From: an uncultured Planctomycetales bacterium
GTDB taxonomy: Bacteria; Omnitrophota; Gorgyraeia; Zapsychrales; JAHFFX01
Direction: 5' to 3'
DNA length: 64,000 nucleotides
Assembly: GCA_964612665.1 (NCBI GenBank)
Contig: CAZTCI010000006.1
Span: forward strand, 141,750 to 205,749
Of this stretch, positions 1,605 through 51,729 are shown one piece after another; position 1 is the first letter of the stretch; each line of letters opens with the position of its first letter. The translations under genes and the position numbers were made by a program. The notes beneath the pieces were generated by a model, which was not told the origin of the DNA, made no database searches, and worked only from the letters and a program-made list of their open reading frames with translations.

Positions 1605-2201
1605 ATGATTAAAAAGACTTTAACAACATATGGTATCGCTGATCATTGCCAGGTCACGCCGCGCACGGTGATTCAATGGATCATCGAAGGAAAATTAAAG
1701 GCGTATCGCACGCCGGGAAATCACAGCCGCGTGAGCGTTGAAGATTTTGTGGATTTCCTAACGAAATACAATATGCCTGTTCCCGACGAGATAGCTTCAC
1801 AAAACTCCCGGGGGAAGAAACGCATACTTATTGTTGACGACGATCAAGGTATGGTTAGTTCTATTGAACGGTTTCTGATCAGAGAGAAAATTTATGATTT
1901 GGAAGTGGCTTACGATGGTTTTGAAGCTGGTCAGAAATTTTCGGCCTTCAAACCAGATTTAATTATTCTGGATATTAAGATGCCAGGCGTGAATGGGTAT
2001 AAATTGTGCGCTAATGTTCGAAGTAATCCCGCGAATAAGAATGTGAAAATTATTTTGATGTCGGGAATGGCTGATAAATATGAATTAGAGCGGATAGAGA
2101 AATTGGGAGCAGACGCTTACCTTGCCAAGCCTTTTAAGATTCAGGCGTTGAAAGAAAAAATTCAAATGTTTCTGGAAAATACTTATGCGAATAAAAAATA
2201 A
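1605..2201 (+). CDS. Response regulator with N-terminal excisionase/MerR-type HTH and C-terminal receiver domain
   Basis: N-terminus TTYGIADHCQVTPRTVIQWIIEGKLKAYRTPGNHSRV is an HTH_17/excisionase-like DNA-binding domain. C-terminus KRILIVDDDQGMV...LIILDIKMPGVNG is a REC domain. Confidence 0.8.
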   Translation: MIKKTLTTYGIADHCQVTPRTVIQWIIEGKLKAYRTPGNHSRVSVEDFVDFLTKYNMPVPDEIASQNSRGKKRILIVDDDQGMVSSIERFLIREKIYDLEVAYDGFEAGQKFSAFKPDLIILDIKMPGVNGYKLCANVRSNPANKNVKIILMSGMADKYELERIEKLGADAYLAKPFKIQALKEKIQMFLENTYANKK

Positions 2202-2808
2202 TTCCATATATGGAACCATAGCGGCGTTGGTTGCCTGGCTATTTATTATTGGAATAGGATGGACGATGCTTTCCCGGTATGAAAATACGCCGGGCCAGGC
2301 GGAAGCCGCGCCGCAGCGCTGGCCGTTGACGAGCCAAATGCCTCGTATACCCCATTTCAGTACCTTGCTTATGTTTGTCCATCCGCATTGTCCTTGTACT
2401 CGGGCGAGCCTCGAAGAACTTGCTTTAATCGAAACGCATTGCCAGCACAAGGCGAAGACACAGGTGATTTTTGTAAGACCAGAGAACGTTTCTAAAGACT
2501 GGATCAATACTGATCTTTGGCGAAGTGCTATGGCCATTCCTGGCGTTGATGTGTTGGTGGATGATAATGGAAAAGAGGCGGACATTTTTCACGCGGCTGT
2601 TTCAGGTCAAGTGATGTTATATGATGCTCAAGGGAATTTAGTTTTTAGCGGCGGCATCACTTCTTCACGGGGACACTCAGGAGATAACGACGGGCGGGAC
2701 GCAATTGAGGCTTTTTTAAATAAGGGAACGGTTCCGGTCAAGGGCACGTCATTTTTCGGATGCCTGTTGCTTAACCGTGAGTCCAATAAAGCTCAAGGGG
2801 GTAAATAA
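2185..2808 (+). CDS. Membrane-anchored thioredoxin-fold protein with a CPC redox motif
   Basis: N-terminal TM helix IAALVAWLFIIGIGW, then FVHPHCPCTRASLEEL... and ...GQVMLYDAQGNLVFSGG typical of TlpA/redoxin-like folds. 17-nt overlap with the upstream gene and ATGG overlap with the downstream kinase, consistent with translational coupling. Confidence 0.5.
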   Translation: MRIKNNSIYGTIAALVAWLFIIGIGWTMLSRYENTPGQAEAAPQRWPLTSQMPRIPHFSTLLMFVHPHCPCTRASLEELALIETHCQHKAKTQVIFVRPENVSKDWINTDLWRSAMAIPGVDVLVDDNGKEADIFHAAVSGQVMLYDAQGNLVFSGGITSSRGHSGDNDGRDAIEAFLNKGTVPVKGTSFFGCLLLNRESNKAQGGK

Positions 2809-4397
2809 TGGAAGCGTTAAGAGATTTAATAACACAACGATCGCATGAATTATTCTTAAATCATCGCCAAAATATTTTTAAACAAACCGATCGTTTATTT
2901 GTCGGCCTGATGGCGTTCCAATGGGTCGCGGGAATTGTGATCGCTTTGATTGTGTCACCCAAAACCTGGATAGGCACCGTAAGTCTGACGCACACGCATG
3001 TCTGGGCCGCGGTCTTTTTAGGCGGCGCGATCGCGGCTTTGCCGATCGCGTTGGGAATTTTTATGCCAGGACATGTGATTACCCGCAATGTCGTCGCGGT
3101 CGCGCAAATGTTATTTTCTGCGTTACTCATACATTTGACCGGGGGCCGGATTGAAACGCATTTTCATGTTTTCGGTTCGTTGGCTTTTTTGGCGTTCTAC
3201 CGCGACTGGAAGATTCTTATTCCCGCGACGATCGTGGTGGCTTTAGACCATTTTGTGCGGGGCGTTTTTTGGCCGCAATCTGTTTTCGGAATTTTGACCG
3301 CAAGTCCCTGGCGTTGGATAGAACACTCCGCGTGGGTTGTTTTTGAAGATCTTTTCTTGATTTCTTCCTGCCGTAGAAGCGTTGAGGAAATGAAAAATAT
3401 CGCCGACAGAACGGCCCAGTTAGAGGCGCATAACCGGCTCGTCGAAGTTAAGGTCAAAGAGCGCACCCAGGAATTATTCAGATCCAAAGAAATTCTCGCC
3501 ACGGAAATCAGCGAACGCAAAAAATTGGAAACCATGATTTTTCACGCTGAAAAGATGGCCGCTGTCGGTCAGCTCGCGGCCGGCGTGGCGCATGAAATCA
3601 ATAATCCCGTCGGATTTATCAGCAATAATTTGGAAATGCTTGAACAATATGTTGGTGACTATGCCAAAATTTTAAGAATGGTGGAGAATCTAAAGAAAGG
3701 CATTGAAGAAGACAATTTAGAAAAGATAAAGCACATTCTTAAAGATATCAGTGCATTTGAAAAAGAAATTAATCTGGATTACGTCATTAATGATCTCAGC
3801 AAATTATTGCAGCATACTCAACGGGGCATTGAACGAATCCAGAAGATCGTTTTAGATTTACGCACCTTTGCCAGGGAGGACAACGATACCGTCGAGTTTG
3901 TAAAGATTGAAGAGGTCATCGATAATATTCTAAACATTGTGTACAACGAAATTAAATACAAAGCAGAATTAAAGAAGAATTACGGCGACACGCCCTTGGT
4001 CAAAGGCAACACGCAAAGATTAGGGCAGGTTTTTATTAATTTGCTTGTTAATGCCGTGCAGGCTATTGAAGATAAAGGTGTCATTGAGATCGCGACCTAT
4101 CAACAGGGCCGCCATGTTTGCGTTGAAGTATCTGACACCGGCAAAGGGATTAGCCAAGAACATTTGAAAAAAATATTCGATCCATTTTTTACGACCAAAC
4201 CCATTGGCCAGGGCACGGGGCTCGGCCTAAGCGTCAGTTATGAAATTCTTAAGAAACATGGTGGAGAAATGAAGGTCCAATCGAAAGTCGGACAAGGAAC
4301 TGTGTTTACCGTTGTGCTTCCCTTGTCTGAAGGAGGTTACAATGATCGATTTAAAGATCGAAAAACTCGAGCAACGATTAAAGAGTATGAAGGCTAG
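2808..4397 (+). CDS. Sensor histidine kinase with polytopic N-terminal membrane sensor domain, HisKA and HATPase_c
   Basis: About 190 aa of TM helices rich in His (HFHVFGSLAFLAFY, DHFVRG), a coiled linker, H-box AAGVAHEINNPVGFI, and N/G-boxes DTGKGI...GTGLGLSVSYEIL. Confidence 0.85.
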   Translation: MEALRDLITQRSHELFLNHRQNIFKQTDRLFVGLMAFQWVAGIVIALIVSPKTWIGTVSLTHTHVWAAVFLGGAIAALPIALGIFMPGHVITRNVVAVAQMLFSALLIHLTGGRIETHFHVFGSLAFLAFYRDWKILIPATIVVALDHFVRGVFWPQSVFGILTASPWRWIEHSAWVVFEDLFLISSCRRSVEEMKNIADRTAQLEAHNRLVEVKVKERTQELFRSKEILATEISERKKLETMIFHAEKMAAVGQLAAGVAHEINNPVGFISNNLEMLEQYVGDYAKILRMVENLKKGIEEDNLEKIKHILKDISAFEKEINLDYVINDLSKLLQHTQRGIERIQKIVLDLRTFAREDNDTVEFVKIEEVIDNILNIVYNEIKYKAELKKNYGDTPLVKGNTQRLGQVFINLLVNAVQAIEDKGVIEIATYQQGRHVCVEVSDTGKGISQEHLKKIFDPFFTTKPIGQGTGLGLSVSYEILKKHGGEMKVQSKVGQGTVFTVVLPLSEGGYNDRFKDRKTRATIKEYEG

Positions 4398-4809
4398 AGA
4401 TGTGATGTCGCGTTTTGCCATCACCATCAAAGAACACGAGACAACAACCAGTCTGGCTCATTTGATGATGCGGTTTAAAATCAGCGGCGTGCCGGTGATT
4501 GATAAAAACGGCGAAATCTGTGGGATCGCCACAGCGACGGATCTTTTTGACTTAATGAAAAGCATTATTAAAGATATTGATCAAGGAGCTGATTTAAAAC
4601 AGCATGTTAACCAAAAAGTCGAAATGCTGATGACCCGGAATGTGGTGACAATCACCGAGGAAACGAGTTTATATGAGATCATGAAGATCATGTGCGAAAG
4701 AAATATTCATACCTTGCCGGTCATGGTTGTCGCCAAGAAAGAAATCGTCGGTGTGATCGGAAGGCGGGATATTCTCAACGCCTTTTATTCAGGAGGTGAA
4801 TTAGAATGA
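4342..4809 (+). CDS. CBS-pair domain protein
   Basis: Two CBS motifs (VMSRFAITIKEHETT...GVPVIDKNGEICGIATATDL and LMTRNVVTITEE...TLPVMVVAKKEIVGVIGRRDIL). Start chosen at the ATG with GGAGG 7 nt upstream; the ORF track begins at 4312. Confidence 0.75.
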   Translation: MIDLKIEKLEQRLKSMKARDVMSRFAITIKEHETTTSLAHLMMRFKISGVPVIDKNGEICGIATATDLFDLMKSIIKDIDQGADLKQHVNQKVEMLMTRNVVTITEETSLYEIMKIMCERNIHTLPVMVVAKKEIVGVIGRRDILNAFYSGGELE

Positions 4810-5948
4810 ACAAAGAGATCCAGGTTCTTTTTTTAGATGATGAGCCGAGCATCATTGACGGGCTGCAGCGGTTATTCATGCGCGAAGATTATGGTATTTT
4901 TGTGACGACAAGTCCGGCCAAGGCCCGGGAAATGCTTAAGCAGGAAAAAATAAAAGTCATGGTCAGCGACTACCGCATGCCGGAAATCTCAGGCGTTAAG
5001 TTTTTGAGGGAAGTCAAAGAACAATATCCGCCGATTGTAAAAATTCTTTTTACCGGCTTCACTGATTTTTCAGCCGCCGAGGAGGCAATTAATATCGGAG
5101 AGGTTTATCGGTTTATAAGCAAACCATGGAAGACTGCTGAATTATTATCGACAATCCGTCAATCGATTGAACATTATGATCTCGTGCTTGAGGCAAAAAC
5201 GAAAAAAGAGGAACTGGAAGCCACCAACAAACAATTACAGGTCATGTATGAAATGCAAAAAGAATTTACCTCAACGGTATCGCACGAACTGCGAACACCA
5301 CTGGCTTCAATTAAAACCGCAATTGATTTAGTTGTCAGAAGAATGGTGGGTGACATTACGAAAGAGCAGGAAGATGTTCTCGGACGGGCCAAGAAAAATG
5401 TCGACCGCTTAAAGCGGTTGATCGACGATATTTTAGATTTAACCAAGATGGAAGCGGGTAAAGTGCAGATGAATTTAATCACCAATGATATCAACAAGGT
5501 GATCAAGGAAGTTGTCGAGGCTCAAAAAGACGTCGCTGCTAACCGGGGATTGTCGCTTAAAATGGAACTGGCTGAATCTATGCCGCCGGTGCCTTTCGAT
5601 AGTGATAGGATCACTCAGGTCATGAATAATCTTTTAAGTAACGCTCTTAAATTTACAAGACAAGGAGGTGTCACTATAACGAGTATTAATAATGCCGAGC
5701 GTAATCACATTATCGTCCACATCAAAGATACCGGCCCGGGGATTGCGGAACAAAATTTACTAAAAGTTTTTGAAAAATTCCAACAAGTTGAATCAGCTGA
5801 CAGGAATGAAGAGGGCGGAACGGGATTAGGACTTGCGATTTGCCGTCAGATTATAGAGCGGCATCGCGGCAAAATTTGGGTGGAATCCAAGTTAGGTGAA
5901 GGCGCGGCGTTTAGTTTCATCCTTCCCATCCAGGAAAGAAGGAGTTAA
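4806..5948 (+). CDS. Hybrid response-regulator / histidine kinase (REC-HisKA-HATPase_c)
   Basis: N-terminal REC (QVLFLDDEP...VMVSDYRMPEISG), H-box SHELRTPL, and ATPase boxes NLLSNALKFT, DTGPGI, GGTGLGLAICRQI. ATGA overlap with the upstream CBS gene. Confidence 0.85.
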   Translation: MNKEIQVLFLDDEPSIIDGLQRLFMREDYGIFVTTSPAKAREMLKQEKIKVMVSDYRMPEISGVKFLREVKEQYPPIVKILFTGFTDFSAAEEAINIGEVYRFISKPWKTAELLSTIRQSIEHYDLVLEAKTKKEELEATNKQLQVMYEMQKEFTSTVSHELRTPLASIKTAIDLVVRRMVGDITKEQEDVLGRAKKNVDRLKRLIDDILDLTKMEAGKVQMNLITNDINKVIKEVVEAQKDVAANRGLSLKMELAESMPPVPFDSDRITQVMNNLLSNALKFTRQGGVTITSINNAERNHIIVHIKDTGPGIAEQNLLKVFEKFQQVESADRNEEGGTGLGLAICRQIIERHRGKIWVESKLGEGAAFSFILPIQERRS

Positions 5949-5950
5949 CT

Positions 5951-6751
5951 ATGAGTGCTGATAAAACGATTCTTCTGATCGATGATGAAACGGATTTACA
6001 AGAGCTGGTCAAGATTACTCTGAAAACACAACAATACAATGTCATCATTGCGCGTAACGGTATCGAAGGGTTGGAAATCCTTAAAACAACGAAGCCCGAT
6101 CTTGTTATCTTGGATTTGAATATGCCCAAAATGGGCGGGCTGGAATTTTATCAGAATATTTGCGATCGCCATGACCGGCCCCGGTATCCCGTTTTAATCC
6201 TGACCGCCCGCGCGAACATGGAGCGCCTTTTCAAGCAATTTAATATTGACGGCTTTATGGCCAAGCCTTTTGAAATTGATGATCTGCTGCGCGAGGTTAA
6301 CATTATTATTGAAAGAAGATCAAACGGCAGCGTCAAGTTATTACCGTCGGGAAATAGAGAGATCAGAAAGGTGTGTATTGTTGAAAATGATCCGGAAATG
6401 CTCAGTCAAATCGGTTCTACTTTCTTAAACGCAGGTTACATCGTTAATCCAGCGCACAGCGGGACCGATGGCATAGAGCGCATCGCCAACACTATGCCAG
6501 ATGTCGCTTTAGTCAAACTAGGGTTGCTTGATATTCCGGGTGACATGGTGATTCTTAAATTAAAATACATGGCGAAAACTCAAGACATCAAATGTATTTT
6601 GTATACGGACAAGAGTGCCGAAAAGGCGGCCATTGCCCAAAAGGTTGGCATTAAAGAAGGGATTGCGCGTTTTGTTGAATTTGTTTATTCCGCTGAACTT
6701 TTAGCCGCCGCAAATGAAATAGTAAGGGAACATGAAGCGGTAAAGGCTTAG
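5951..6751 (+). CDS. Tandem-receiver protein (canonical REC followed by a second, degenerate REC-like domain)
   Basis: TILLIDDETD...LVILDLNMPKMGG...MAKPF is a canonical REC. The C-terminal half KVCIVENDPEMLSQ...VALVKLGLLDIPGDMV resembles a REC without a clear acid pocket. Confidence 0.75.
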   Translation: MSADKTILLIDDETDLQELVKITLKTQQYNVIIARNGIEGLEILKTTKPDLVILDLNMPKMGGLEFYQNICDRHDRPRYPVLILTARANMERLFKQFNIDGFMAKPFEIDDLLREVNIIIERRSNGSVKLLPSGNREIRKVCIVENDPEMLSQIGSTFLNAGYIVNPAHSGTDGIERIANTMPDVALVKLGLLDIPGDMVILKLKYMAKTQDIKCILYTDKSAEKAAIAQKVGIKEGIARFVEFVYSAELLAAANEIVREHEAVKA

Positions 6752-6808: not shown

Positions 6809-7111
6809 TAGAAAAGAAACGGAAAGGTTATGCACGTGTAAAGCTTATTAGAACGTATCGCATAAATAGCCGAAGGCACGGGTTCTGTCACGGCAAACGC
6901 TTGTGGGCCCCTCCGCCCGGCGTGGATCCTCCCACAATCGGCTCACCGTGCCACCCGCTGCCCGCTCAATGCCATTTATGGGATGACTTCTACATAAGCA
7001 TCAAGGAAAAGTTTCCAAAAGTGCAGAAACCCGCGACAAAATGCTAAAAAGCCAGAAGAAAGAATGATAAGTATATTGAGCAAAAACTATTCTCATTGTT
7101 TTGTTGGTTTA

Positions 7112-8338
7112 TTATTCATGTTCTTGTTTCTTTATAGGTCTATTTTTCTGATAATAAGTTTGTTGTTTTAATTTGCCGTTTTGGCCATATTCTTTAACCA
7201 GTCCTTCCAATTGTCCTGCTTTATAATTTTTTAAAATTTTCCATTTTCCGTTATCGTAATATTCTCGATATTCTCCATCAAGAACATCATTCTTATAGGT
7301 AGCAAAGAGAACGATCTGACCATTGGGAAGAAATTTTCTAAAGCCGCCATCCCGTTTTCCGTTTAAACGCCCTTCGAGAGTCATAATTTGACCATTGGGA
7401 TAATATTTTTTAATTATTCCATTTAACTGTTTATCTTGCGCCTCCGTCTTTATAGAATCTTTTTGATTGTCGACTTTCTTAATGGTTTTATCAGGAGAGC
7501 TGACCAATCTGAGTGTTAGAAATATGAAAATAATAAGAGGGAGTAAAAGAAAATACCTTGCGTTCAACGATAAATCTTTTTTAGGCTTTCTAGAATTATT
7601 TCGTGAGTCAAATGCTTCCTGAATGGCCTCCTGGAAAAGCTGTGTTCTGATTTCCATTTCCAAATAAGGCAAGAGGAAACGTTGATAACAGTCTTCCAAA
7701 GCTAACCGAACATGCTGGCCGGCTTCATTATCTTTTTTTATAAATAACTTGTTTAGAATGTTGAAACACCCGTCGGACGGCACATTAATAGATAAGGATA
7801 GAATGCCTTTGCTTTCGGCATCTAAAAGTTCCAAAGCGTGAAAGCATTTTGTTGATAGCGGAATAAAAGAGCCATTTAAGTATTTTTTATAATGAGTAAA
7901 TTCCGGGTGGTTTTCTTTAATAATGGCTATGTTTAATGAACCATGTGATTTTAAAAAAGACTTTAATTCTTTTTTAGCCTCTTTATTTTTTTTTATCCGT
8001 TCTGCAACAATGTCTCTTGCCCCGGCCAACGCCTCCTCTCGAGAATTGACCTTAAGTTTTGGCTCAATAAAAGCTAAAGCATCGTCTTGCGGTTTAACAT
8101 TTTCCTGAGCCCAAAGGATTTTTGCTAAAGGCTCTAATCCTTTTTTTAGGGCAATGAGTCCGCGTGTTTCAGTATGAGAAGCATAGAGGTCATAAAGATC
8201 TTCTAAAAGGGAGGACGCATTGGTTGTGAGTATTCTGACTTTAATCTCTTGAGTAAGTTCTCCATTATGGGCGAGTACGTCCATAATTCTTAACCTTCTT
8301 TGATGCAGAATTCGTAGATTTGCGAAATATTCGGTCAT
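7112..8338 (-). CDS. Membrane protein with Tex N-terminal-like helical domain, one TM helix and C-terminal MORN-variant (YwqK-like) repeats
   Basis: Residues about 60-240 align by eye to the Tex N-terminal domain (LYASHTETRGLIALKKGLEPLAKILW...ALAGARDIVAERI...HYKKYLNGSFIPLSTKCFHALELLD...GILSLSINVP). TM helix YFLLLPLIIFIFLTLRLV. C-terminus has repeated YYPNGQI/FLPNGQI/YYDNGKW/YGQNGKL MORN-type units. Confidence 0.65.
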   Translation of the reverse strand: MTEYFANLRILHQRRLRIMDVLAHNGELTQEIKVRILTTNASSLLEDLYDLYASHTETRGLIALKKGLEPLAKILWAQENVKPQDDALAFIEPKLKVNSREEALAGARDIVAERIKKNKEAKKELKSFLKSHGSLNIAIIKENHPEFTHYKKYLNGSFIPLSTKCFHALELLDAESKGILSLSINVPSDGCFNILNKLFIKKDNEAGQHVRLALEDCYQRFLLPYLEMEIRTQLFQEAIQEAFDSRNNSRKPKKDLSLNARYFLLLPLIIFIFLTLRLVSSPDKTIKKVDNQKDSIKTEAQDKQLNGIIKKYYPNGQIMTLEGRLNGKRDGGFRKFLPNGQIVLFATYKNDVLDGEYREYYDNGKWKILKNYKAGQLEGLVKEYGQNGKLKQQTYYQKNRPIKKQEHE

Positions 8339-8459
8339 GTTAATTTAAATAATTTGACAAAAATGGATTGCTGAATATAATACTAAAAATTCTATTATAG
8401 TATTATAGTTATCATTATCTAGGTGTCAATACCCGCCCATCCTAAAAAGGAGAGTCGCA

Positions 8460-9068
8460 ATGGATAAAGACGCGCAAGTTAAGGAAAAGATATTAAACAT
8501 TGCAGAAAAACGAATGATCAAATTTGGATACCGCAAAGTCACAATGGATGAAATCTCGCAAGATTTATCGATGAGTAAAAATACCATTTACAAGCATTTC
8601 GCCAGCAAAATAGAAATGGCTGAAGCCATCTTTAGACGCTTAGAGAAAGAAATAAATCATGAGCTTTCCCTTATAGAGGAAAGTAGTAAAGACCCGTTAG
8701 AAATTATCTCGAAGAGCATTTTCTTTGTTCAGCACAAATTAGCTCCTTGGTTTGAACATTTTTTAGGGGATATTAAATTTGAACTCCCCGATTTGTGGCA
8801 GCAATTTGCCGATTTTAGAAATGAAAAGATATCGGAAATAAAAAAACTTATCGAAGATGGGATTCAAAAAGGCAAGTTCAGAAAAGTCAATGCTGCCCTG
8901 GCGTTGCAGGTTTACTTGGGAGGCATCAATCAAGTCATCAACCCGGAATTTCTGACTAGAGAGAAGATTTCATTTTCAGATGCCATTGAAGGTGTCTTAA
9001 ATATCTGGTCGACGGGCATCGTAAAGAACAAGGATAAGGGCATGAGTTATGGTAAGAGTAGTTATTGA
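8460..9068 (+). CDS. TetR/AcrR family transcriptional regulator
   Basis: N-terminal HTH KILNIAEKRMIKFGYRKVTMDEISQDLSMSKNTIYKHFASK. Confidence 0.85.
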   Translation: MDKDAQVKEKILNIAEKRMIKFGYRKVTMDEISQDLSMSKNTIYKHFASKIEMAEAIFRRLEKEINHELSLIEESSKDPLEIISKSIFFVQHKLAPWFEHFLGDIKFELPDLWQQFADFRNEKISEIKKLIEDGIQKGKFRKVNAALALQVYLGGINQVINPEFLTREKISFSDAIEGVLNIWSTGIVKNKDKGMSYGKSSY

Positions 9069-9303
9069 TAAGATCAATTATGAAATCAGTGAAAATTCTT
9101 GCTTGGCTGATGTTTGTTACAAAGCAGGCGTTCCCTTTAGCTGTAATTCAGGTGTTTGCGGGAGTTGTCAGATCACAATTGTCAATGGCGCTGAAAATCT
9201 GAATGAGTTAAACCAAGAAGAAAAGGAATTAGGCATGGATCGAATCCGTCGTTTAGGTTGTCAATGCCGAATCATTAAAAGCACAGTGGAAATTACTTTT
9301 TGA
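9049..9303 (+). CDS. 2Fe-2S ferredoxin-like protein
   Basis: Cys pattern CNSGVCGSCQ...GCQC typical of plant-type 2Fe-2S ferredoxin domains. Confidence 0.65.
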   Translation: MVRVVIDKINYEISENSCLADVCYKAGVPFSCNSGVCGSCQITIVNGAENLNELNQEEKELGMDRIRRLGCQCRIIKSTVEITF

Positions 9304-9336
9304 AATAAGCTCAAAAGAACTTAACGAGGAAGAATT

Positions 9337-9777
9337 ATGAATCAACAAGACGAAAATAAGAAAAATTGGATCGTCGACATTATCAAGAATTCTGGATTTG
9401 GTTTTCTAGCTACGGTTGATCCTGATAATCGGCCATACGTAAGGCCCATGATGCCGCATTTAAGCGATGACGGGGTGTTATTACTGGCTGTTCTTCCCCA
9501 TTCCAGAACTTTAAAACATGTTCAGAATAACCCTATGGTTGAGATTTGTTATCTTAACAGTCAAATGACCTATTGCCGTATTTCGGGCAAAGCCCGGATA
9601 AGTTACGATTTGGAAAAAAAGGAACTCGTTTGGAATAATATTGCGATGTTGCGAAATTATTTCGCTAGTCCTCTCGACGAAAAATACCATCTTTTGGAAA
9701 TTGATTCTGAGAGAATCGAGACATTGACTGCATCGCAGACATTCCCTGAGGATTTCTATTTTTGTTTAACTCAATAG
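9337..9777 (+). CDS. Pyridoxamine 5'-phosphate oxidase-like FMN-binding split-barrel protein
   Basis: GFGFLATVDPDNRPYVRPMM...VEICYLNSQ... typical of the PNPOx-like family. Confidence 0.7.
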   Translation: MNQQDENKKNWIVDIIKNSGFGFLATVDPDNRPYVRPMMPHLSDDGVLLLAVLPHSRTLKHVQNNPMVEICYLNSQMTYCRISGKARISYDLEKKELVWNNIAMLRNYFASPLDEKYHLLEIDSERIETLTASQTFPEDFYFCLTQ

Positions 9778-9854
9778 TTTCTTTGGGACGAAGGACCTTA
9801 TAAAAGTTGTTGAGAAGATAAAATCAGTTTTTAACAATTAGTTAGGAGGAAGAG

Positions 9855-11183
9855 ATGAAAATGTTGTTCAAGGGTTCCAAGGTTTTAAAAGCTATGGGAT
9901 TCTTCCTGGCTTTTGGGATTATGCCGGCGTTTGCTGATGATTCGCCAAATAATCCTGAGTTTTCGCAATGGAATTTTAAACTCGCCGGTGAGGAAAGACT
10001 GCGGTATGAATACAAAAATGATTTCGATTTTAATCAAAATCTCAAAGACAATGGCGGCCAGTTGTATCACCGTTTGCGTTTAGGTGGAATGGCCAGTCTT
10101 ACCGATGAATACCTTAAGCCCAAAGTCGATATTTTTATTGAAGGTCTCGACGCGCAAACCGGCGGTTATAGGATCAAAGCGGCTTCTAATCAAGTCGATG
10201 ACTTTGATCTTCATCAAGCTTATGTAAACGTTCATCATATTTTGAATTCAGATTTTGATATTAAAGCCGGCCGCGAGGAATTTAAATATGGTAAAGGACG
10301 GTTGATTGCCGCTCCGACGTGGGCAAACCGCATCCGTGCCTTTGATGGAGGCGTTTTTCATTATCAGAAGAAGGAATTCTGGGCAGATTTTTTATACGGA
10401 CAAGATGTTAAATATGATGACGATAAATTTAATCAATCCCGTTCAGAAGAATTCTTAACTGGTTTTTACAGCGCATATCAAAAACATAAAATGGCCCCAT
10501 TGATTGAGCCTTACTTTTTGGAGATGAAGGACCTTAAAGGAACAACAAACACCCAGCGCTATACCGTCGGAGCGCATCTGCAGCATACGATAGCTGATGG
10601 TACGGTTTTGGATATGGAATTTCCTTATCAATTCGGTCATGTTGGTTCGGCGACTTCAAAGAAAAAGGAAATCAAGGCCTATGCGTTTCATGCCGATGTG
10701 ACTAAAAGTTGGGAAGCTGTTCAATTGAAACCTAAGTTAATGATTTCTTATGACGAGGCCTCCGGTGATAAAGATCCCAATGACAGTGTCAACAATACAT
10801 TCATTCCTTTGTATCAAACCACACATGAACCTTATGGTTTATTGGATTTTTTCCGTTGGGAAAATATGCGCAATCCAGAAATCAGTGCGACATTTTCTCC
10901 GACGGAAAAGCTTAGATTTACACCGCAGACAGATTTTTTCTGGCTGCAGAGCAAATTCGATTCTTGGTATAACTCTTCTGGAACAGCCGTTCGTTCGAAA
11001 ACAAGCGGTGACCGCGGTTATTTTGTCGGCACGGAAATTTCGCTGCGCGTTTATTATGATCTTAATAAATATCTTAAGCTAGAATCCGGCTACGCACATT
11101 TTTTGCCAGGTGTATATGTGAAAGACAGCGGAGCGGATGATGATGTGGATTGGGTTTACTCACAAGTCGCCTTTAAATTCTAA
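9855..11183 (+). CDS. Outer-membrane beta-barrel protein (alginate-export/porin-like), first gene of the molybdate uptake cluster
   Basis: Signal peptide MKMLFKGSKVLKAMGFFLAFGIMPAFA, alternating amphipathic strands, and an aromatic C-terminus VAFKF typical of OMP barrels. Confidence 0.55.
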   Translation: MKMLFKGSKVLKAMGFFLAFGIMPAFADDSPNNPEFSQWNFKLAGEERLRYEYKNDFDFNQNLKDNGGQLYHRLRLGGMASLTDEYLKPKVDIFIEGLDAQTGGYRIKAASNQVDDFDLHQAYVNVHHILNSDFDIKAGREEFKYGKGRLIAAPTWANRIRAFDGGVFHYQKKEFWADFLYGQDVKYDDDKFNQSRSEEFLTGFYSAYQKHKMAPLIEPYFLEMKDLKGTTNTQRYTVGAHLQHTIADGTVLDMEFPYQFGHVGSATSKKKEIKAYAFHADVTKSWEAVQLKPKLMISYDEASGDKDPNDSVNNTFIPLYQTTHEPYGLLDFFRWENMRNPEISATFSPTEKLRFTPQTDFFWLQSKFDSWYNSSGTAVRSKTSGDRGYFVGTEISLRVYYDLNKYLKLESGYAHFLPGVYVKDSGADDDVDWVYSQVAFKF

Positions 11184-11201
11184 ATTAATTGGAGAAAAGT
11201 T

Positions 11202-11960
11202 ATGAAAATGAGATCAATTATATTATCACTTTTACTTGTTTTATTTTCGTCAGTATATGCTTTTGCCGACTTGACCGTTGCGGTGGCGGCGAATGTTCAA
11301 TATACTTTTGAAGAACTCAAAGCCGCGTTTCAAAAAGAGACGGGCATTAATGTCAAACAGATTATCGGTTCGTCGGGAAAATTTACAACTCAAATTGAGA
11401 ACGGTGCGCCGTTTGATGTCTTTCTCTCCGCTGACATGGATTATCCCAAAACACTTGAGAAGGAAGGATTGACATACAACTCACCTAAAATTTATGCTTA
11501 CGGGACGCTGGTTTTGTGGACAATGAATAATGTTGATTTAACGAAAGGCATTGACGCCGTGGCGGACTTGGCGGTCAAAAAAGTGGCGATCGCTTCTCCT
11601 AATACCGCACCGTATGGACGTCAGGCTGTGAATGCGCTTAAACATTATCATTTATACGGTCAGGTCCAGAAAAAATTGGTTTACGGCGAAAGCATCGCGC
11701 AGGCCAATCAATTTATCACAACCAAAGCCGTTGATCTTGGATTCACCGCCCAATCCGTCGTGCTTGCGCCCAATATGAAAGATCAGGGGAAATGGATTGA
11801 AATCGATAAGCAAGCCTACGAACCGATCGCGCAGGGTGTGGTTATCTTGAAACATGTTCAAAAAGAAAATTTGCAAGACGCACAGAAGTTTTTTGATTTT
11901 CTTTTTTCCTTGGAAGCTCACGAGATTTTTAAAAAATACGGTTATGTTTTGCCTGAATAA
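11202..11960 (+). CDS. modA: Molybdate ABC transporter substrate-binding protein
   Basis: Signal peptide, then LTVAVAANVQYTFEELKAAFQKETGINVKQIIGSSGKFTTQIENGAPFDVFLSADMDYP, a ModA signature. Adjacent modB and modC. Confidence 0.85.
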   Translation: MKMRSIILSLLLVLFSSVYAFADLTVAVAANVQYTFEELKAAFQKETGINVKQIIGSSGKFTTQIENGAPFDVFLSADMDYPKTLEKEGLTYNSPKIYAYGTLVLWTMNNVDLTKGIDAVADLAVKKVAIASPNTAPYGRQAVNALKHYHLYGQVQKKLVYGESIAQANQFITTKAVDLGFTAQSVVLAPNMKDQGKWIEIDKQAYEPIAQGVVILKHVQKENLQDAQKFFDFLFSLEAHEIFKKYGYVLPE

Positions 11961-11972
11961 GAAAGGCGGCTT

Positions 11973-12380
11973 ATGAATAAACTAAAAGGAAAAATTTCTG
12001 ATGTCCAATCCTCCGATCATATTTCAATCATTCAGGTGAATGTCGACGGAGATGTCTTTAGCTCCATTGTATTGGAAGGAAAGAAGAGCCCGTTAAGTTA
12101 TAAACCTAAAGACAATGTCACTCTGCTTTTCAAAGAAACTGAAGTTGGTCTTGCTAAAGATTTGAGCGGCATGATTAGTTTAAGAAACCGGTTTAAAGCC
12201 ACAATCAAGAAAATTGATAAAGGTCCAATTCTGGCCAAGGTTACTCTCCAATACCGAACACACACTATCGAATCGATTATCTCCGCCCAATCCGCCACGC
12301 AAATGAAGCTCAAAGAAAAAGAAGAAGTTGAGTGGCTGGTCAAAACAAATGAAGTGACCTTAATGAAAAATCCCGAATGA
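11973..12380 (+). CDS. mop: Molybdopterin/molybdate-binding protein (tandem TOBE/Mop domains)
   Basis: Two about 65-aa repeats beginning MNKLKGKISDV... and RNRFKATIKKID... characteristic of Mop/ModE C-terminal TOBE domains. Confidence 0.75.
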   Translation: MNKLKGKISDVQSSDHISIIQVNVDGDVFSSIVLEGKKSPLSYKPKDNVTLLFKETEVGLAKDLSGMISLRNRFKATIKKIDKGPILAKVTLQYRTHTIESIISAQSATQMKLKEKEEVEWLVKTNEVTLMKNPE

Positions 12381-12381
12381 T

Positions 12382-13050
12382 ATGGATATCAGTCCATTAC
12401 TCCTCACCTTCAAGTTAGCGTGTCTCACGACGCTAATTCTCATCGTCATCGGCATTCCGCTCGCGTATTGGGTTTCATTTTCCCGCAATCGATTGAAATA
12501 TTTCATTGAACCGCTCATCAGCATGCCGTTGGTTTTGCCGCCGACGGTGTTGGGCTTTTATATTTTGCTTGTCTTCAGCCCGCGGTCCCCCGTTGGTAAT
12601 TTCTTAGAAACAGTTTTTCATCTCAAAGTGGTTTTTACTTTTACCGGATTGGTAATCGGTTCCGTTTTATTCAGTCTGCCTTTTATGGTTAATCCCATTA
12701 AATCCGGATTGCAAAGTTTTCCTCAATCGTTAATTGAGGCCTCCTACGCACTGGGCAAATCAAAAAGAGAAACTCTTTTAAAAGTAATTCTACCCAATAT
12801 TAAACCGGCTTTATTGACGGGAATCGTGATGGCGTTTGCGCACACAGTGGGAGAGTTTGGCGTGGTTTTAATGATCGGCGGCAATATTCCTGGCGAAACA
12901 CGCGTTGCTTCGATTGCGATTTTCGGAGAAGTCGAAGCGTTAAACTATGCCGCCGCAAATTTTTATTCTGCGATTTTATTTTTAATTTCGTTTCTTATCT
13001 TATTTGCTTTAAATATCATCAATAAAAAAGACTATAAGGTCATGCCATGA
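12382..13050 (+). CDS. modB: Molybdate ABC transporter permease
   Basis: Five TM helices and the EAA-like loop IEASYALGKSKRETLLKVILP. Confidence 0.85.
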   Translation: MDISPLLLTFKLACLTTLILIVIGIPLAYWVSFSRNRLKYFIEPLISMPLVLPPTVLGFYILLVFSPRSPVGNFLETVFHLKVVFTFTGLVIGSVLFSLPFMVNPIKSGLQSFPQSLIEASYALGKSKRETLLKVILPNIKPALLTGIVMAFAHTVGEFGVVLMIGGNIPGETRVASIAIFGEVEALNYAAANFYSAILFLISFLILFALNIINKKDYKVMP

Positions 13051-13919
13051 TTCGAGTGAAAGCTAAAAAGAAATTAATCACCAGTCATGGTCCTTTGCAG
13101 CTCGATGTCGATTTTCAAATACAGGACAAAGAATTCATTACATTTTTCGGCCAGTCGGGAGCGGGGAAAACCACGATCCTGCGCATGATTGCCGGGTTAA
13201 CCGATCCAGAAGAAGGATTGATCGAAGTCGATCGCGAAATCTGGTTTGATAGCAACAAAAAAATTAATCTCCCAATTCAAAAAAGAGAAATCAGCCTCGT
13301 TTTCCAGGATTACAATCTCTTCCCTAATATGACGGTCAGGGAGAATTTACAATATGCGCTTAAAGATAAGAAAGATGAGAAACTTATCGACGAGTTTCTG
13401 GAAATGGTGCATTTGAGTGAATTGAAAAGCCGTAAACCCGAAATCCTTTCCGGCGGGCAGAAGCAAAGAGTCGCTTTAGTCCGGGCGTTACTTAGACGTC
13501 CTAAAATATTTTTATTGGATGAACCTTTATCTGCGCTCGATTTAGATTTGCGTTTAAAACTGCAGGACGAAATTTTTGCGCTTTATAACCGGTTTAAGAT
13601 TCCGACGATCTTTGTGACGCATGACTTAAGTGAAATTTTTAAACTCGCCCATCAGATTCTTATGGTTGAAAGAGGACGGATCATCCGCTCGGGTAAGCCG
13701 CCCGATATTTTCGGCGAAGAGATGTTAAGCGGCAAATTTAAATTTGTCGGGCGCATTCTTGCCTTAGAAAAAGAAGATTTCCTTTATATTGTAACCGTAC
13801 AGATTGGAAATAATTTAACAAAGGTTGTGGCGACGGAAAAAGAGGCGGAGGCTTGGCGTGTCGGCGATCGAGTTTTGGTTTCGGCCAAGGCGTTTAATCC
13901 GATTATTTTAAAGATCTAA
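13047..13919 (+). CDS. modC: Molybdate ABC transporter ATP-binding protein with C-terminal TOBE domain
   Basis: Walker A GQSGAGKTT, ABC signature LSGGQKQRVAL, Walker B IFLLDEP, and a C-terminal TOBE region. Confidence 0.85.
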   Translation: MIRVKAKKKLITSHGPLQLDVDFQIQDKEFITFFGQSGAGKTTILRMIAGLTDPEEGLIEVDREIWFDSNKKINLPIQKREISLVFQDYNLFPNMTVRENLQYALKDKKDEKLIDEFLEMVHLSELKSRKPEILSGGQKQRVALVRALLRRPKIFLLDEPLSALDLDLRLKLQDEIFALYNRFKIPTIFVTHDLSEIFKLAHQILMVERGRIIRSGKPPDIFGEEMLSGKFKFVGRILALEKEDFLYIVTVQIGNNLTKVVATEKEAEAWRVGDRVLVSAKAFNPIILKI

Positions 13920-40613: not shown

Positions 40614-40730
40614 ACCAATAACCAAGATACAAACACCAAACAAATTCCAATATCCAAATTCGAATCTTCATTGGTTTGTGAATTGAATATTGAAATTTGG
40701 TAATTGTTTGGTGTTTGTATCTTGGTTATT
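40614..40730. repeat. 117-nt near-perfect palindromic element between nuoC and nuoD
   Basis: accaataaccaagatacaaacaccaaacaa at 40614-40643 versus aattgtttggtgtttgtatcttggttatt at 40702-40730, with a second nested inverted repeat (ccaaattc / gaaatttgg) in the loop. Confidence 0.75.
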
Positions 40731-40745
40731 AAATATTCTAAAGAT

Positions 40746-42068
40746 ATGTCTGAATCCCGCACAATGATGTTAAATGTAGGTCCTTCGCACCCGGCGATGC
40801 ATGGTGTTATCCGGCTGATTATGGAGCTGGAGGGGGAGAAAATTAAAAATGTCGACGTGGAGATCGGCTATCTTCACCGCGCTTTTGAGAAAATGTGCGA
40901 AACGGTCATGTACGCGCAGTGTTTTCCTTATACTGATCGGTTGAATTATGTTTCGCCACTCATCAATAATGTCGGCTTTGCGTTGGCGGTTGAACAACTT
41001 TTGGGGATTGATATTCCGGAACGGGCGAAATATATCCGGGTCATCATGAGTGAAATTTCGCGCGTGACCGACCATCTGACTTGCATCGGCGCCTCCGCCA
41101 TGGAATTGGGCGCGATGTCTGCTTTCCTTTATATGATCAAAGCCCGGGAATTTTTGTATGAACTCGTCGAAGAAATCACCGGCGCCCGTTTAACCATTTC
41201 CTATGTCCGTATCGGCGGCGTCAAAGCTGACCTCACGCCCGGTTTCGCGGACAAAGCTTTCAAAAAAATCGCGGATGTGCGCAAAGTCTTGATTGAAGTC
41301 GATGAATTGTTAACGCGTAACCGGATCTTTTTTGACCGGGTCAAAGATATCGGAAAAATTTCCGCTGATGATGCGATCGCCTATGGCATCACCGGTCCAT
41401 TCCTGCGCTCGACGGGCGTTGCGTATGATGTGCGTAAAGCTAATCCCTATTTAATCTATGACCGTTTAAAATTTGAAGTGCCGACCGGAACGAAAGGGGA
41501 TAACCTCGACCGTTATTTTGTCCGTATGGAAGAGATGGAACAGAGTCTGCGGATTGTTGAACAATGTTTAGAACAAATTCCCGATGGGCCGATTGCGGGG
41601 AATTTAACCGCAGAAGTGATTCCGGCCGCCGAAATGGTTGATAAAGCCAAGATGGGACAGACCAAAGGTTTGATTGAAGATCAGGTTGATTTGGATCCCA
41701 CGCTTCAAGGCAGCACCAAGAAATTTTATAAAGGTATTAACGCCGAAAGAAAAGATGTTGTTCTTCCGGCCAAGGAAGACACTTACAGTAATATCGAAGG
41801 GTTAATGAATCATTTTAAGCTGGTTATGTATGGTCACGGCATTAAGCCTCCGGTCGGCGAAGCTTATTTTCCCGTCGAGGGGGCGAATGGTGAACTTGGG
41901 TTTTATATTGTCAGTGACGGACGTGATCAACCCTGGCGCGTCCGTGTTCATCCGCCGTGTTTCCCAATCATGGCCGCGTTACCGAAAGTTTTAATTGGAG
42001 ACATGATGGCGGATTTGGTTCCGACGTTTGGGTCGGTGAATATGATCGCCGGGGAGTTAGATCGTTGA
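40746..42068 (+). CDS. nuoD: NADH-quinone oxidoreductase subunit D
   Basis: MSESRTMMLNVGPSHPAMHGVIRL... 49 kDa subunit. Start set at the first ATG after the palindromic element; the track ORF begins at 40704. Confidence 0.9.
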   Translation: MSESRTMMLNVGPSHPAMHGVIRLIMELEGEKIKNVDVEIGYLHRAFEKMCETVMYAQCFPYTDRLNYVSPLINNVGFALAVEQLLGIDIPERAKYIRVIMSEISRVTDHLTCIGASAMELGAMSAFLYMIKAREFLYELVEEITGARLTISYVRIGGVKADLTPGFADKAFKKIADVRKVLIEVDELLTRNRIFFDRVKDIGKISADDAIAYGITGPFLRSTGVAYDVRKANPYLIYDRLKFEVPTGTKGDNLDRYFVRMEEMEQSLRIVEQCLEQIPDGPIAGNLTAEVIPAAEMVDKAKMGQTKGLIEDQVDLDPTLQGSTKKFYKGINAERKDVVLPAKEDTYSNIEGLMNHFKLVMYGHGIKPPVGEAYFPVEGANGELGFYIVSDGRDQPWRVRVHPPCFPIMAALPKVLIGDMMADLVPTFGSVNMIAGELDR

Positions 42069-42176
42069 TAGACGAATAGACACAAGTAGAAATTCTAACG
42101 TGTGTCATGTGTCTGGCGTCTTGTGTCCTTAAAAGTTTAGGAGGCTTTTATTTCTACGAAGACTCTAATTCCAGAA

Positions 42177-42617
42177 ATGGATAAAATCACAAGCCAGTAC
42201 GAAAGCAAACGCGCGGCATTGCTTCCTTTATTGCATTTGGTTCAGGAAAAACAAGGCATTATCTCGCCGGAAGCGGAAAAAGAAATAGCGGAATATCTTG
42301 GCATTGCGGTGTCGCACGTGCATGAAGTTATTTCGTTTTATCACTTGTTCCATCAGAAACCTCAGGGTAAATGTCATTTCTCTGTTTGCCAAACAACCGC
42401 TTGTTCTTTATTGGGCGGAGAAGAAATCATTGGTCATATTAAGAAAAGATTAAACATTAAAGCCGGCGAGACCACTCCCGACGGTAAATTCAGTCTGGGG
42501 GTTGTCGAATGCCTGGGCGCCTGCGAACTCGCGCCGATGATGCAGTGCAATAAAGATTATATCGGTTTCTTAAACAATAAAAAAGTTGATGAATTAATCG
42601 AGCAGAATTCTAAATAA
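42177..42617 (+). CDS. nuoE: NADH-quinone oxidoreductase subunit E (2Fe-2S)
   Basis: CQTTACSL ... CLGACELAP cysteine motifs. Confidence 0.9.
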   Translation: MDKITSQYESKRAALLPLLHLVQEKQGIISPEAEKEIAEYLGIAVSHVHEVISFYHLFHQKPQGKCHFSVCQTTACSLLGGEEIIGHIKKRLNIKAGETTPDGKFSLGVVECLGACELAPMMQCNKDYIGFLNNKKVDELIEQNSK

Positions 42618-42621
42618 ACCT

Positions 42622-43935
42622 ATGGAAAAAATAGTCACCCGACATTTTGATCAGCCTGAATCATACCGGATTGATTCCTATTTAAAAGATAAAGGCTACG
42701 AAGGCGCGCGTAAAGCACTGACCCAAATGACGCCCGCTCAGGTTATTGATGAGGTTAAGAAATCGAATTTGCGCGGGCTTGGCGGCGCAGGGTTCGCGAC
42801 GGGCATGAAATGGAGTTTTATTCCGAAAGACAACCCAAAACCCAAATATCTCGTCGTCAACGGTGATGAAGGCGAGCCAGGGACGTTTAAAGACAAATAC
42901 ATTTTGGAACTAGATCCGCACGCGTTGATCGAAGGGATGATTATTACCTGCTACGCGATTGGAAGCCATAAAGGTTATGTTTATATTCGCGGCGAATATT
43001 TAAAACAGATTGAAAGACTGCGCGCTGCGATCGCGGAAGCTTATCAAAAAGGATTTCTCGGTAAAAATATTATGGGAACGGGTTTCGATTTGGACATTGT
43101 TGTTCACCAAGGCGCCGGCGCTTATATCTGCGGTGAAGAAACCGCGCTCATTGAATCGCTCGAAGGGAAAAAAGGGTTCCCGCGTCTTAAACCGCCTTTC
43201 CCGGCGGTCGTTGGATTGTTCGGCTGCCCGACGGTGATTAATAACGTTGAAACCTTGGCGTGCGTTCCTCCGATTATTATGAATGGCGCGGAGTGGTATG
43301 CGAAATTGGGTTGCGAAAAAAACGGTGGGAACAGATTGTTTTGTATCAGCGGTCATGTGAATAGACCCGGAATCTATGAACTTCCCAATGGAACAACTTT
43401 GCGCGAAATTATTTATCAGCACGCCGGAGGCATTCGTAACGGCCGTCAGCTTAAAGCTGTCATTCCCGGCGGCATTTCAGCGCCGCTTTTAATACCCGAT
43501 CAGCTCGACGTGAAAATGGATTTCGATTCCCTCAAAGCGATTGGTTCAATGGCCGGTTCCGGCGGAATTATTGTTATGGATGAAACCACGTGCATGGTTC
43601 GTGCCGCCATGATTGCCGCACGGTTTTTTGCGCATGAATCCTGCGGCCAGTGTTCGCCGTGCCGTGAAGGGAGCGGATGGGTCTACCGCAATGTCAAACG
43701 CATTTTCGACGGAGAAGGACGTCCGTTGGATTTACAAAATTTACCCGGTATTGTGGGGAATATCGGCGGCAACACGATCTGCGCGTTCGGGGATGCGGTC
43801 ACAATGTCCATCGGCAGTTACGTCCAAAAATTCCGCCATGAATTTGAACAGCATGTGAAAGACAAACGCTGTGGGCTTACAACCAATTTAAACTCGCCAG
43901 AGGCTGTGAAGGAATATGCCAAAGCTAACCATTGA
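42622..43935 (+). CDS. nuoF: NADH-quinone oxidoreductase subunit F (FMN, NADH-binding, 4Fe-4S)
   Basis: GLGGAGFATGMKW, GAGAYICGEETALIESLEG, ESCGQCSPCREG. Confidence 0.9.
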   Translation: MEKIVTRHFDQPESYRIDSYLKDKGYEGARKALTQMTPAQVIDEVKKSNLRGLGGAGFATGMKWSFIPKDNPKPKYLVVNGDEGEPGTFKDKYILELDPHALIEGMIITCYAIGSHKGYVYIRGEYLKQIERLRAAIAEAYQKGFLGKNIMGTGFDLDIVVHQGAGAYICGEETALIESLEGKKGFPRLKPPFPAVVGLFGCPTVINNVETLACVPPIIMNGAEWYAKLGCEKNGGNRLFCISGHVNRPGIYELPNGTTLREIIYQHAGGIRNGRQLKAVIPGGISAPLLIPDQLDVKMDFDSLKAIGSMAGSGGIIVMDETTCMVRAAMIAARFFAHESCGQCSPCREGSGWVYRNVKRIFDGEGRPLDLQNLPGIVGNIGGNTICAFGDAVTMSIGSYVQKFRHEFEQHVKDKRCGLTTNLNSPEAVKEYAKANH

Positions 43936-45505: not shown

Positions 45506-45536
45506 AATTGTTGTAGAAATGTCACTTATCGTTGGT

Positions 45537-45621
45537 CGGTTTCGTAGCTCGTATCGTCTTTCGGTTGTGGTGACGTCCGAACCGTAACCCCAAACGATTA
45601 CCGATACGAGCTACGAAACCG
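45537..45621. repeat. Intercistronic 20-bp inverted repeat between nuoG and nuoH
   Basis: cggtttcgtagctcgtatcg at 45537-45556 versus cgatacgagctacgaaaccg at 45602-45621, with a nested cggtt/aaccg hairpin in the loop. Confidence 0.75.
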
Positions 45622-45656
45622 ATAGTCATTCAACTCAACCTAACATCTAAGCAAAT

Positions 45657-50045: not shown

Positions 50046-50089
50046 AGTTTATGCTTTCTTGCTAATCGGCCGAAATTTGGACCAGCTGT

Positions 50090-50197
50090 CTGCTCCCCGG
50101 CCCGCTGTATCCGGCGAAGCCGGGGCGGGCACGCGATCCTGTCTCCGCCTTTTCTTTAAGGGAGGTAGGCGGAGACAGGATCGAAGTTCGCTGACAG
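50090..50197. repeat. Copy A of a roughly 85-110-bp intergenic hairpin element present twice in the window (second copy at 58545-58630)
   Basis: gcgatcctgtctccgcc-ttttctttaagggaggt-aggcggagacaggatcg-aagttcgctgacag; about 80% identical to copy B, with base changes that preserve stem pairing. Confidence 0.75.
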
Positions 50198-50213
50198 TCA
50201 TCCGCAAAAGGCC

Positions 50214-51698: not shown

Positions 51699-51729
51699 AG
51701 TTTAAATTACAAATAATTTAAAATTCAAT

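Follow-up and report, generated by a model that had tools for sequence, protein, structure and literature searches.

What is left of the transcription accessory protein Tex when its nucleic-acid-binding modules are gone and a membrane anchor stands in their place? The question is raised by a minus-strand gene of contig CAZTCI010000006.1, within the stretch of 64,000 nucleotides analysed here (the window), whose 408-amino-acid product we call Tex-MORN as a working name (database copy P0001). With high confidence we read this protein as a fragment of the helical scaffold of Tex followed by a single transmembrane helix and four MORN_2 repeats, and as the outcome of a gene fusion. An earlier sequence-only reading had given the gene coordinates that coincide exactly with an open reading frame (ORF) of the window; it had the overall architecture right, and the name of the Tex domain and the number of repeats have to be corrected.

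The public call of P0001 is shorter (390 amino acids, starting at M19) than the ORF that we use. The start at M1 is better supported than M19 because an in-frame stop codon lies two codons upstream, because Tex homology is already present from residue ~5, and because the equivalent ATG is used in three homologues, each after a conserved 5' leader (TTTTGTCAAAT...ATG); the motif just upstream of the ATG is conserved at loci L002 and L005. A Shine-Dalgarno sequence was not found at the Tex-MORN start codon; many window genes do have one.

Anatomy of the Tex-MORN protein

Both sequence and fold show residues 1-245 to be homologous to residues ~55-300 of Tex (Pseudomonas aeruginosa PA5201, PDB 3BZC/3BZK/2OCE), and this part likewise resembles the Spt6 core. 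Pfam matched Tex_central_region (PF22706) to residues 79-242 with 52.4 bits (cut-off 27, E=8.3e-14), and phmmer against the PDB aligned residues 5-189 with residues 64-248 of the P. aeruginosa protein (3bzc/2oce, E=2e-14). With BLASTP, more than 100 full-length Tex proteins were matched at E values of about 1e-34 to 1e-47, the query being aligned from residue 1 to 243 (or 267) with Tex residues ~55 to 297 (or 312). The AlphaFold2 model, whose input alignment combined the family with 19 trimmed Tex sequences, had a predicted local distance difference test score (pLDDT) above 90 over residues ~60-240, and Foldseek with this model returned Tex (E=9e-14 over 251 columns), with Spt6 cores next. In the same model the Tex part ends in a long C-terminal spine helix (residues 205-249) that leads toward the membrane helix.

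As to homology, then, the claim that the first ~240 residues are the N-terminal helical domain of Tex stood; what did not stand is the assignment to Tex_N, whose head (Tex 5-77) is absent. We took the domain boundaries from a Pfam scan of the full-length Tex P0006, which places Tex_N at residues 5-77 and Tex_central_region at 136-301. The alignment with Tex-MORN begins at Tex ~55-60, with nearly all of Tex_N missing, including its GG.TVPFI.RYRKE motif, and only 121 nucleotides (nt) lie upstream of the gene before the next one. Tex_N (PF09371), which the sequence-only reading had expected over residues 40-240, was not matched even at E<=10, by the whole protein or by residues 1-84 alone, because the current model covers Tex 5-77 and our protein begins at Tex ~55-60; Pfam has split the region, and the stretch in question is the one matched by PF22706. 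The proposed replacement of the YqgF, HhH and S1 modules by a membrane anchor and MORN repeats was borne out. The YqgF/RuvX-like domain (PF16921) is absent from Tex-MORN according to Pfam, as are HhH (PF12836/PF17674) and S1 (PF00575), all of which are present in the control P0006, and tblastn with Tex found no other Tex piece, and nothing beyond Tex residue 312, in the 64-kb window. Tex-MORN is therefore a piece of the Tex scaffold cut short at both ends and, with four of the five modules that define Tex found absent when tested, functionally not a member of the Tex family. Shorter database proteins with seemingly only Tex_N and the central region (P0088, P0027, P0094 and P0036) were set aside, their tails being out of frame, meaning that they are frameshift artefacts.

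The divergence of the Tex part is strong and unevenly spread. Over the shared region the family is 31% identical to Tex (26-37%), compared with 53% (44-63%) between Tex proteins. Of 65 positions that are at least 90% conserved in Tex, 34 are retained, and these lie within the motifs KGLEPLA, EALAGARDIIAE and AxxDxYxRLLxPxxExExR; the 31 that changed cluster in LPYRPKRRTRA and PSHRxLAxxRGE. The first of these two, a basic motif with a net charge of +3/+4 in Tex, now reads D-x-Y-[AS]-S-x-x-x-T-[RK] with a net charge of -1 to -3. In total charge the Tex-like domain matches Tex proteins, so that the difference is confined to local motif charge. The Tex part is a strongly diverged paralogue of Tex, a fragment that has shed the conserved basic features (LPYRPKRRTRA, PSHRxLAxxRGE and the Tex_N head with RYRKE) and kept the helical core. 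Like Tex, it retains KGLEPLA, EALAGARDIIAE, DxYxRLLxPxxExExR and the long spine helix; unlike Tex, the protein has neither the head, the YqgF-like, HhH and S1 domains nor the two basic motifs, is predicted to be membrane-anchored and is about half as long.

The putative anchor, residues 262-281, has a mean Kyte-Doolittle hydropathy of 2.3 over 19 residues, and AlphaFold2 places a helix at residues 266-278. A comparable hydrophobic segment is found at the same place in all relatives, its sequence being poorly conserved, and the linker that follows has a pLDDT below 50. Because no N-terminal signal sequence was found in Tex-MORN, because this is the single hydrophobic helix in the protein, and because the 15 residues on its N side carry more positive charge (5 K/R and 1 D/E) than the 15 on its C side (4 K/R and 3 D/E), the simplest reading would be an N-in/C-out topology with a cytoplasmic Tex part and periplasmic MORN repeats. 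The periplasmic placement agrees with the nearest MORN_2-only relatives (P0123-P0126), which all start with signal or lipoprotein peptides, and with the signal-peptide-like start of P0121, a protein 53% identical to the C-terminal module that begins MRYLILSPLVLLTALAFSQ exactly where the transmembrane helix of the family aligns. This start lies 39 nt from the contig end, and P0121 may be a truncated family member rather than a stand-alone anchored MORN_2 protein. On inspection of their sequences, P0002 and P0003 have no plausible signal-peptidase site (e.g. Pro at +1). That the helix derives instead from strand one of the YqgF domain of Tex, an origin considered since some BLAST alignments reach query residue 267, seems less likely: the match is weak and the alignment of P0121 gives a simpler explanation.

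By its sequence the C-terminal part makes Tex-MORN a bona fide MORN_2 repeat protein. The Pfam check that had been proposed came out positive, with 42 bits for PF07661 (cut-off 29.6) in three stretches, and P0002 and P0003 also pass the threshold. Repeats start at residues 307, 331, 355 and 379 and a terminal strand follows, so the "about five" MORN/YwqK-type repeats first counted become four of 24 residues plus a strand. AlphaFold2 models beta-hairpins in this part, which gave weak Foldseek matches to the SET7/9 N-domain and MORN1. Tandem 24-residue beta-hairpin repeats and an extracytoplasmic location, given by signal or lipoprotein peptides in the nearest relatives, are what Tex-MORN has in common with bacterial MORN_2 proteins; these are, however, MORN-only and usually have many more repeats, whereas the four repeats of Tex-MORN hang from a transmembrane helix behind a 245-residue Tex-derived domain. 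Expanded MORN2 proteins have been described in invasive Fusobacterium (PMC4222103). A cytoplasmic domain, a hydrophobic segment and MORN_2 repeats also follow one another in P0152 (717 amino acids, TilS PP-loop tRNA-lysidine synthase) and P0210 (889 amino acids, dynamin-family GTPase), which differ from Tex-MORN in their N-terminal domains and in having many more repeats, and which are putative single genes. The junction in P0152 resembles a separate signal peptide (MKTACVALLVLLFSFSAPLFAQD), and this protein could be a read-through of two genes.

Relatives, rarity and selection

The sequence-only reading had called the domain order a lineage-specific rearrangement and proposed a database search for it, and the searches support this view. 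Among 2841 Tex-like matches in 5.8 billion protein clusters, PF22706 occurred together with MORN_2-like sequence only in P0001-P0004, the identity to P0001 being 55% for P0002, 51% for P0003 and 43% for P0004. When a profile of these four members was run against all 1.84 billion representatives (~15 billion proteins), both halves were hit only in the P0002 cluster (730 bits) and in P0004 (475 bits). The next matches, at 199 bits or less, are purely MORN_2 or purely Tex proteins; separate N- and C-terminal profiles run on the 150 best matches confirmed which halves were hit. Two further fragments, P0122 (on L010) and P0121, probably belong to the family. A scan of genome contigs with the protein yielded one ordinary Tex locus, one unrelated MORN locus and nothing more, a scan of metagenome contigs with the family alignment, which used uninformative patterns, gave no new member, and NCBIfam returned only sub-threshold noise (Leptospira adhesin, Scm1, ATP synthase b subunit). 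Only a few related metagenomic genomes have this architecture, and we did not find the combination of Tex, transmembrane helix and MORN_2 described in the literature.

The members come from an NCBI metagenome-assembled genome and SRR12313478, two JGI metagenomes, SRR8422477, SRR34148720 and an ENA assembly. Since the gene is present in independent assemblies of at least five samples, the fusion is not an assembly chimera. Pairwise ratios of nonsynonymous to synonymous substitution rates (dN/dS, Nei-Gojobori, NG86), which are rough figures because synonymous sites are near saturation, were 0.10-0.24 for the whole gene against its three orthologues; by region they came to 0.08-0.25 (Tex part), 0.07-0.21 (MORN part) and 0.3-0.5 (linker and transmembrane helix). 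Both the Tex and the MORN domain are clearly under purifying selection, and ratios of 0.07-0.25 in both domains mean that this is a working gene rather than an artefact. The two halves are not equally conserved, pairwise identity being 69-80% in the MORN part versus 49-60% in the Tex part. Within the Tex part, EALAGARDIIAE and similar scaffold motifs are invariant across all family members.

Two relatives depart from the common pattern. P0004 (L005 134-1051) has in-frame deletions of ~16 residues in the Tex part and of roughly two MORN repeats. Its frame stays open and its dN/dS is still low, on a contig of only 1.1 kb; it may be a slimmed-down variant or come from a lineage with relaxed constraint. 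At L010 (1-381, 1.6x coverage), the sequence upstream of the called 91-residue MORN fragment reads YFLIILYFLLT, a stop, and then repeats, the stop in the transmembrane region being either a sequencing error or the mark of a broken family member.

The locus and its neighbours

Tex-MORN is the sole minus-strand gene in its neighbourhood (Table 1), and what lies on its 3' side tells of a former neighbour. In L002 (4496-5215) and L010 (374-1306) an intact acyltransferase gene (Pfam Lip_A_acyltrans) overlaps the Tex-MORN stop codon by 8 nt, and translational coupling is therefore indicated. In L003/L004 (L003 5600-6400) the acyltransferase is frameshifted and the stretch with its HX4D motif is deleted, and in the window two pieces are left, corresponding to residues 2-29 (7108-7034, E 0.022) and to FGNFSLML (7019-6993, E 0.16). 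Because the gene is intact and overlapping at two loci and decayed in L003/L004 and in the window, the ancestral unit appears to have consisted of Tex-MORN and the acyltransferase, the latter having been lost twice with Tex-MORN remaining intact.

Table 1. Coordinates of the features described at the Tex-MORN locus (window positions)
Feature	Position	Strand	Evidence
Complete Tex-MORN gene, 408 codons/amino acids: Tex-derived part, transmembrane helix, four MORN_2 repeats	7112..8338	-	ORF list
Tex-like helical scaffold, residues 1-245 = Tex ~55-300: last helix of Pfam Tex_N, connecting helices and Tex_central_region	7604..8338	-	Pfam, phmmer, BLASTP, AlphaFold2, Foldseek
Tex_central_region PF22706, residues 79-242	7613-8104	-	Pfam scan
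Predicted transmembrane helix (signal-anchor), residues 262-281, YFLLLPLIIFIFLTLRLVSS	7496..7555	-	Hydropathy, flanking charge, AlphaFold2
Linker, residues 282-306: charged, poorly conserved, including a 21-residue insertion specific to this genome	7421..7495	-	Family alignment
Four 24-residue MORN_2 repeats, residues 307-402, G-x3-[KE]-x-Y-x2-NG-[QK]..., predicted periplasmic	7133..7420	-	PF07661, repeat register, AlphaFold2
Promoter-like TTGACA-16-TATAAT for Tex-MORN	8402..8429	-	Consensus match only
Promoter-like TTGACA-16-TATAAT for the divergent TetR gene	8354..8381	+	Consensus match only
Divergent TetR-family regulator, possible regulator of Tex-MORN	8460..9068	+	PF00440
Decayed remnant of an LpxL-like lipid A acyltransferase gene	6993..7108	-	tblastn with the intact L010 protein

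Upstream, the 121-nt spacer holds two perfect matches to the sigma-70 promoter consensus placed back to back, one for each of the two divergent genes, and the -35 element of the TetR promoter falls inside the Tex-MORN 5' leader. The 5' region of Tex-MORN is kept in L002 and L005. A 9-bp inverted repeat (8377-8385/8398-8406) was considered as a TetR operator and rejected, as it follows largely automatically from two divergent TATAAT boxes and was not reported by the repeat finder. An orthologous TetR gene is divergent from P0002 in L002, and a MarR gene takes this place in L003.

The TetR gene heads an operon (8460-13919) for a 2Fe-2S ferredoxin, a PNPOx-like flavoprotein and an alginate-export-type outer-membrane porin; genes of a molybdate-type ABC transporter (SBP_bac_11, TOBE, permease and ATPase) come next, according to the locus copy L001, and TetR, porin and binding protein are also syntenic in L002 (1-3244). 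This operon may be a TetR-controlled oxyanion uptake unit adjoining Tex-MORN. On the other side, a plus-strand two-component cluster (1605-6751) encodes an HTH_17-receiver protein, an unannotated 207-residue ORF, a 529-residue histidine kinase, a 380-residue hybrid receiver-kinase and a 266-residue double-receiver protein, and ends convergently with the acyltransferase remnant on the 3' side of Tex-MORN.

Elsewhere in the window the genes for complex I fall into two groups, nuoD, F, G and H lying on the plus strand (40704-46736) and nuoL, M and N on the minus strand (48609-53571), with a gene for a CPA2 cation/proton antiporter (47393-48559) between them. The NuoD ORF (454 amino acids, TTG start) exceeds the models in length by ~50-70 residues, and its match to them is broken into two stretches, so that an insertion is suggested. 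The window NuoF falls into a 90%-identity cluster with proteins labelled Candidatus Omnitrophota at NCBI, and the remaining content is ordinary chromosomal (nuo genes, zwf, gnd and an exopolysaccharide cluster); for these reasons the host is probably a diderm bacterium of Omnitrophota type.

What the fusion may do

The explanation that we favour is as follows. The 5' part of a duplicated tex gene would have been fused, with the reading frame preserved, to a gene whose product was a secreted MORN_2 protein; the signal peptide of that protein, kept uncleaved, would have turned into the membrane anchor. The product would be a single-pass inner-membrane protein of a diderm bacterium. Its Tex-derived domain would stay in the cytoplasm, would no longer bind RNA or DNA, and would form a protein-binding scaffold held near the membrane by the spine helix (205-249), and the four MORN_2 hairpins, exported to the periplasm, would bind an envelope component. 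The protein would then serve as a tether or adaptor across the membrane in a process that involves the envelope, as the former coupling to the acyltransferase suggests; ancestrally it would have been co-translated with this LpxL-family enzyme, and control by the divergent TetR is possible. We infer the tether or adaptor function tentatively, and for the explanation as a whole, a compromise between the firm anatomy and origin and this far weaker part, the case is evenly balanced. The membrane-tethered protein-interaction role put forward in the sequence-only reading is plausible and fits the loss of the nucleic-acid modules and of the basic motifs.

Several observations weigh against this explanation. 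The topology was drawn from hydropathy and charge alone, and the MORN part is modelled with low confidence (pLDDT 35-65). The loss of nucleic-acid binding is read from the missing modules; Tex reportedly needs its S1 domain for nucleic-acid binding. A 2026 study found that PA5201 binds promoter DNA directly, the domain not being mapped (PMC13340108). The genomic context at the loci examined indicated no binding partner, and upstream synteny is only partly conserved, with TetR at two loci and MarR at one. The acyltransferase has decayed in L003/L004 and in the window, where Tex-MORN stays intact, meaning that the two are not obligate partners, and the in-frame deletions in both domains of P0004 show that constraint is not absolute.

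This last point bears directly on the best-surviving alternative, namely that the Tex part is an evolutionary passenger which supplies a promoter, a start codon and a tolerated cytoplasmic head, the work being done by the anchored periplasmic MORN_2 domain. The ~16-residue deletion in the Tex part of P0004 would fit such a domain, as would the loss of 31 of the 65 positions conserved in Tex, both basic motifs included, and the better conservation of the MORN half (69-80% versus 49-60%); P0121, with its 53% identity to the C-terminal module, may even be a stand-alone anchored MORN_2 protein. However, dN/dS is similarly low in the Tex part (0.08-0.25) and the MORN part, every member has kept scaffold motifs such as EALAGARDIIAE unchanged, and the pLDDT of the Tex part exceeds 90. 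A useless domain of 245 residues should moreover decay at 50% divergence, as the neighbouring acyltransferase did, and P0121, whose start is 39 nt away from the end of its contig, may be no more than a truncated member of the family. We thus regard an idle Tex part as unlikely.

A second alternative makes Tex-MORN a trans-membrane signalling regulator, in which the MORN repeats would sense an envelope cue and the Tex scaffold would sequester or recruit part of the transcription apparatus, be it RNA polymerase, canonical Tex or some other factor. Bitopic one-component regulators of the ToxR/CadC type and anti-sigma factors of the RseA/RsgI type have an N-terminal cytoplasmic domain, a single transmembrane helix and a C-terminal periplasmic domain, and hydropathy and flanking charges predict the same layout for Tex-MORN, whose spine helix leads toward the membrane. 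The gene also diverges from a TetR gene, the consensus promoters of the two overlapping, and Tex and Spt6 are transcription-associated, PA5201 having been reported as a direct promoter repressor (PMC13340108). In contrast to the ToxR/CadC and RseA/RsgI types, though, the cytoplasmic domain is neither winged-helix nor anti-sigma, as Pfam and NCBIfam detected no DNA-binding domain (OmpR type, winged helix-turn-helix) and no anti-sigma or sigma-binding domain, and neither a sigma factor nor a target gene is linked to it. Tex-MORN has lost the Tex_N head, the S1 domain and the basic motifs, and no partner gene is conserved beside it. Nor do we know of any contact between Tex and RNA polymerase that maps to the Tex region retained here. 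Altogether, such a regulator is distinctly unlikely. Still less probable is a novel regulatory module at the membrane, in which the Tex fragment, controlled by a periplasmic MORN_2 sensor, would hold RNA polymerase, canonical Tex, an RNA-processing factor or some such part of the transcription or RNA machinery docked to the inner membrane.

The name "antitoxin component YwqK", given by the sources to the fragment P0122 and the relative P0126 and by public pipelines to MORN_2 proteins, raises a third alternative, an immunity or antitoxin protein of YwqK type. The MORN_2 match is indeed significant, but no toxin-like gene (LXG, deaminase or nuclease) adjoins Tex-MORN at any examined locus, the neighbours being TetR/MarR, response regulators and the acyltransferase or its remnant; the MORN part is predicted to be periplasmic, whereas the antitoxin is expected to act in the cytoplasm, and PADLOC gave no match, so that this role is highly improbable. 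Finally, the gene might be an artefact, whether a chimera of the assembly, a pseudogene or a pair of neighbouring genes read as one, and the stop inside the transmembrane region of the low-coverage L010 (1.6x) and the several truncated "Tex" matches due to frameshifts could be invoked for this. Its probability is next to negligible, given that the ORF recurs without interruption in independent assemblies of different samples, that the proteins are 43-60% identical, that dN/dS lies well below 1 and that the start and 5' regions are conserved.

We return to the favoured explanation, a Tex scaffold tethered to the inner membrane, for what it would mean. To our knowledge the biochemical role of Tex is poorly defined, and we know of no role for its scaffold beyond carrying the S1, HhH and YqgF modules. 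The family overturns nothing, and its practical impact is modest, as it is tiny and confined to uncultivated bacteria. It is nonetheless a clean example of a signal peptide turned membrane anchor on gene fusion, and a natural experiment showing that the helical core of Tex can be kept on its own. Were the very uncertain docking of transcription or RNA machinery under a MORN_2 sensor true, the helical core of Tex/Spt6 would for the first time have a defined function in protein-protein interaction in bacteria. Selection has long kept the Tex scaffold alone, without its nucleic-acid modules and tied to the membrane; because it was kept in this stripped form, the scaffold would have a function of its own, most simply protein binding, and the residues of the Tex part are a minimal construct for finding its partner.

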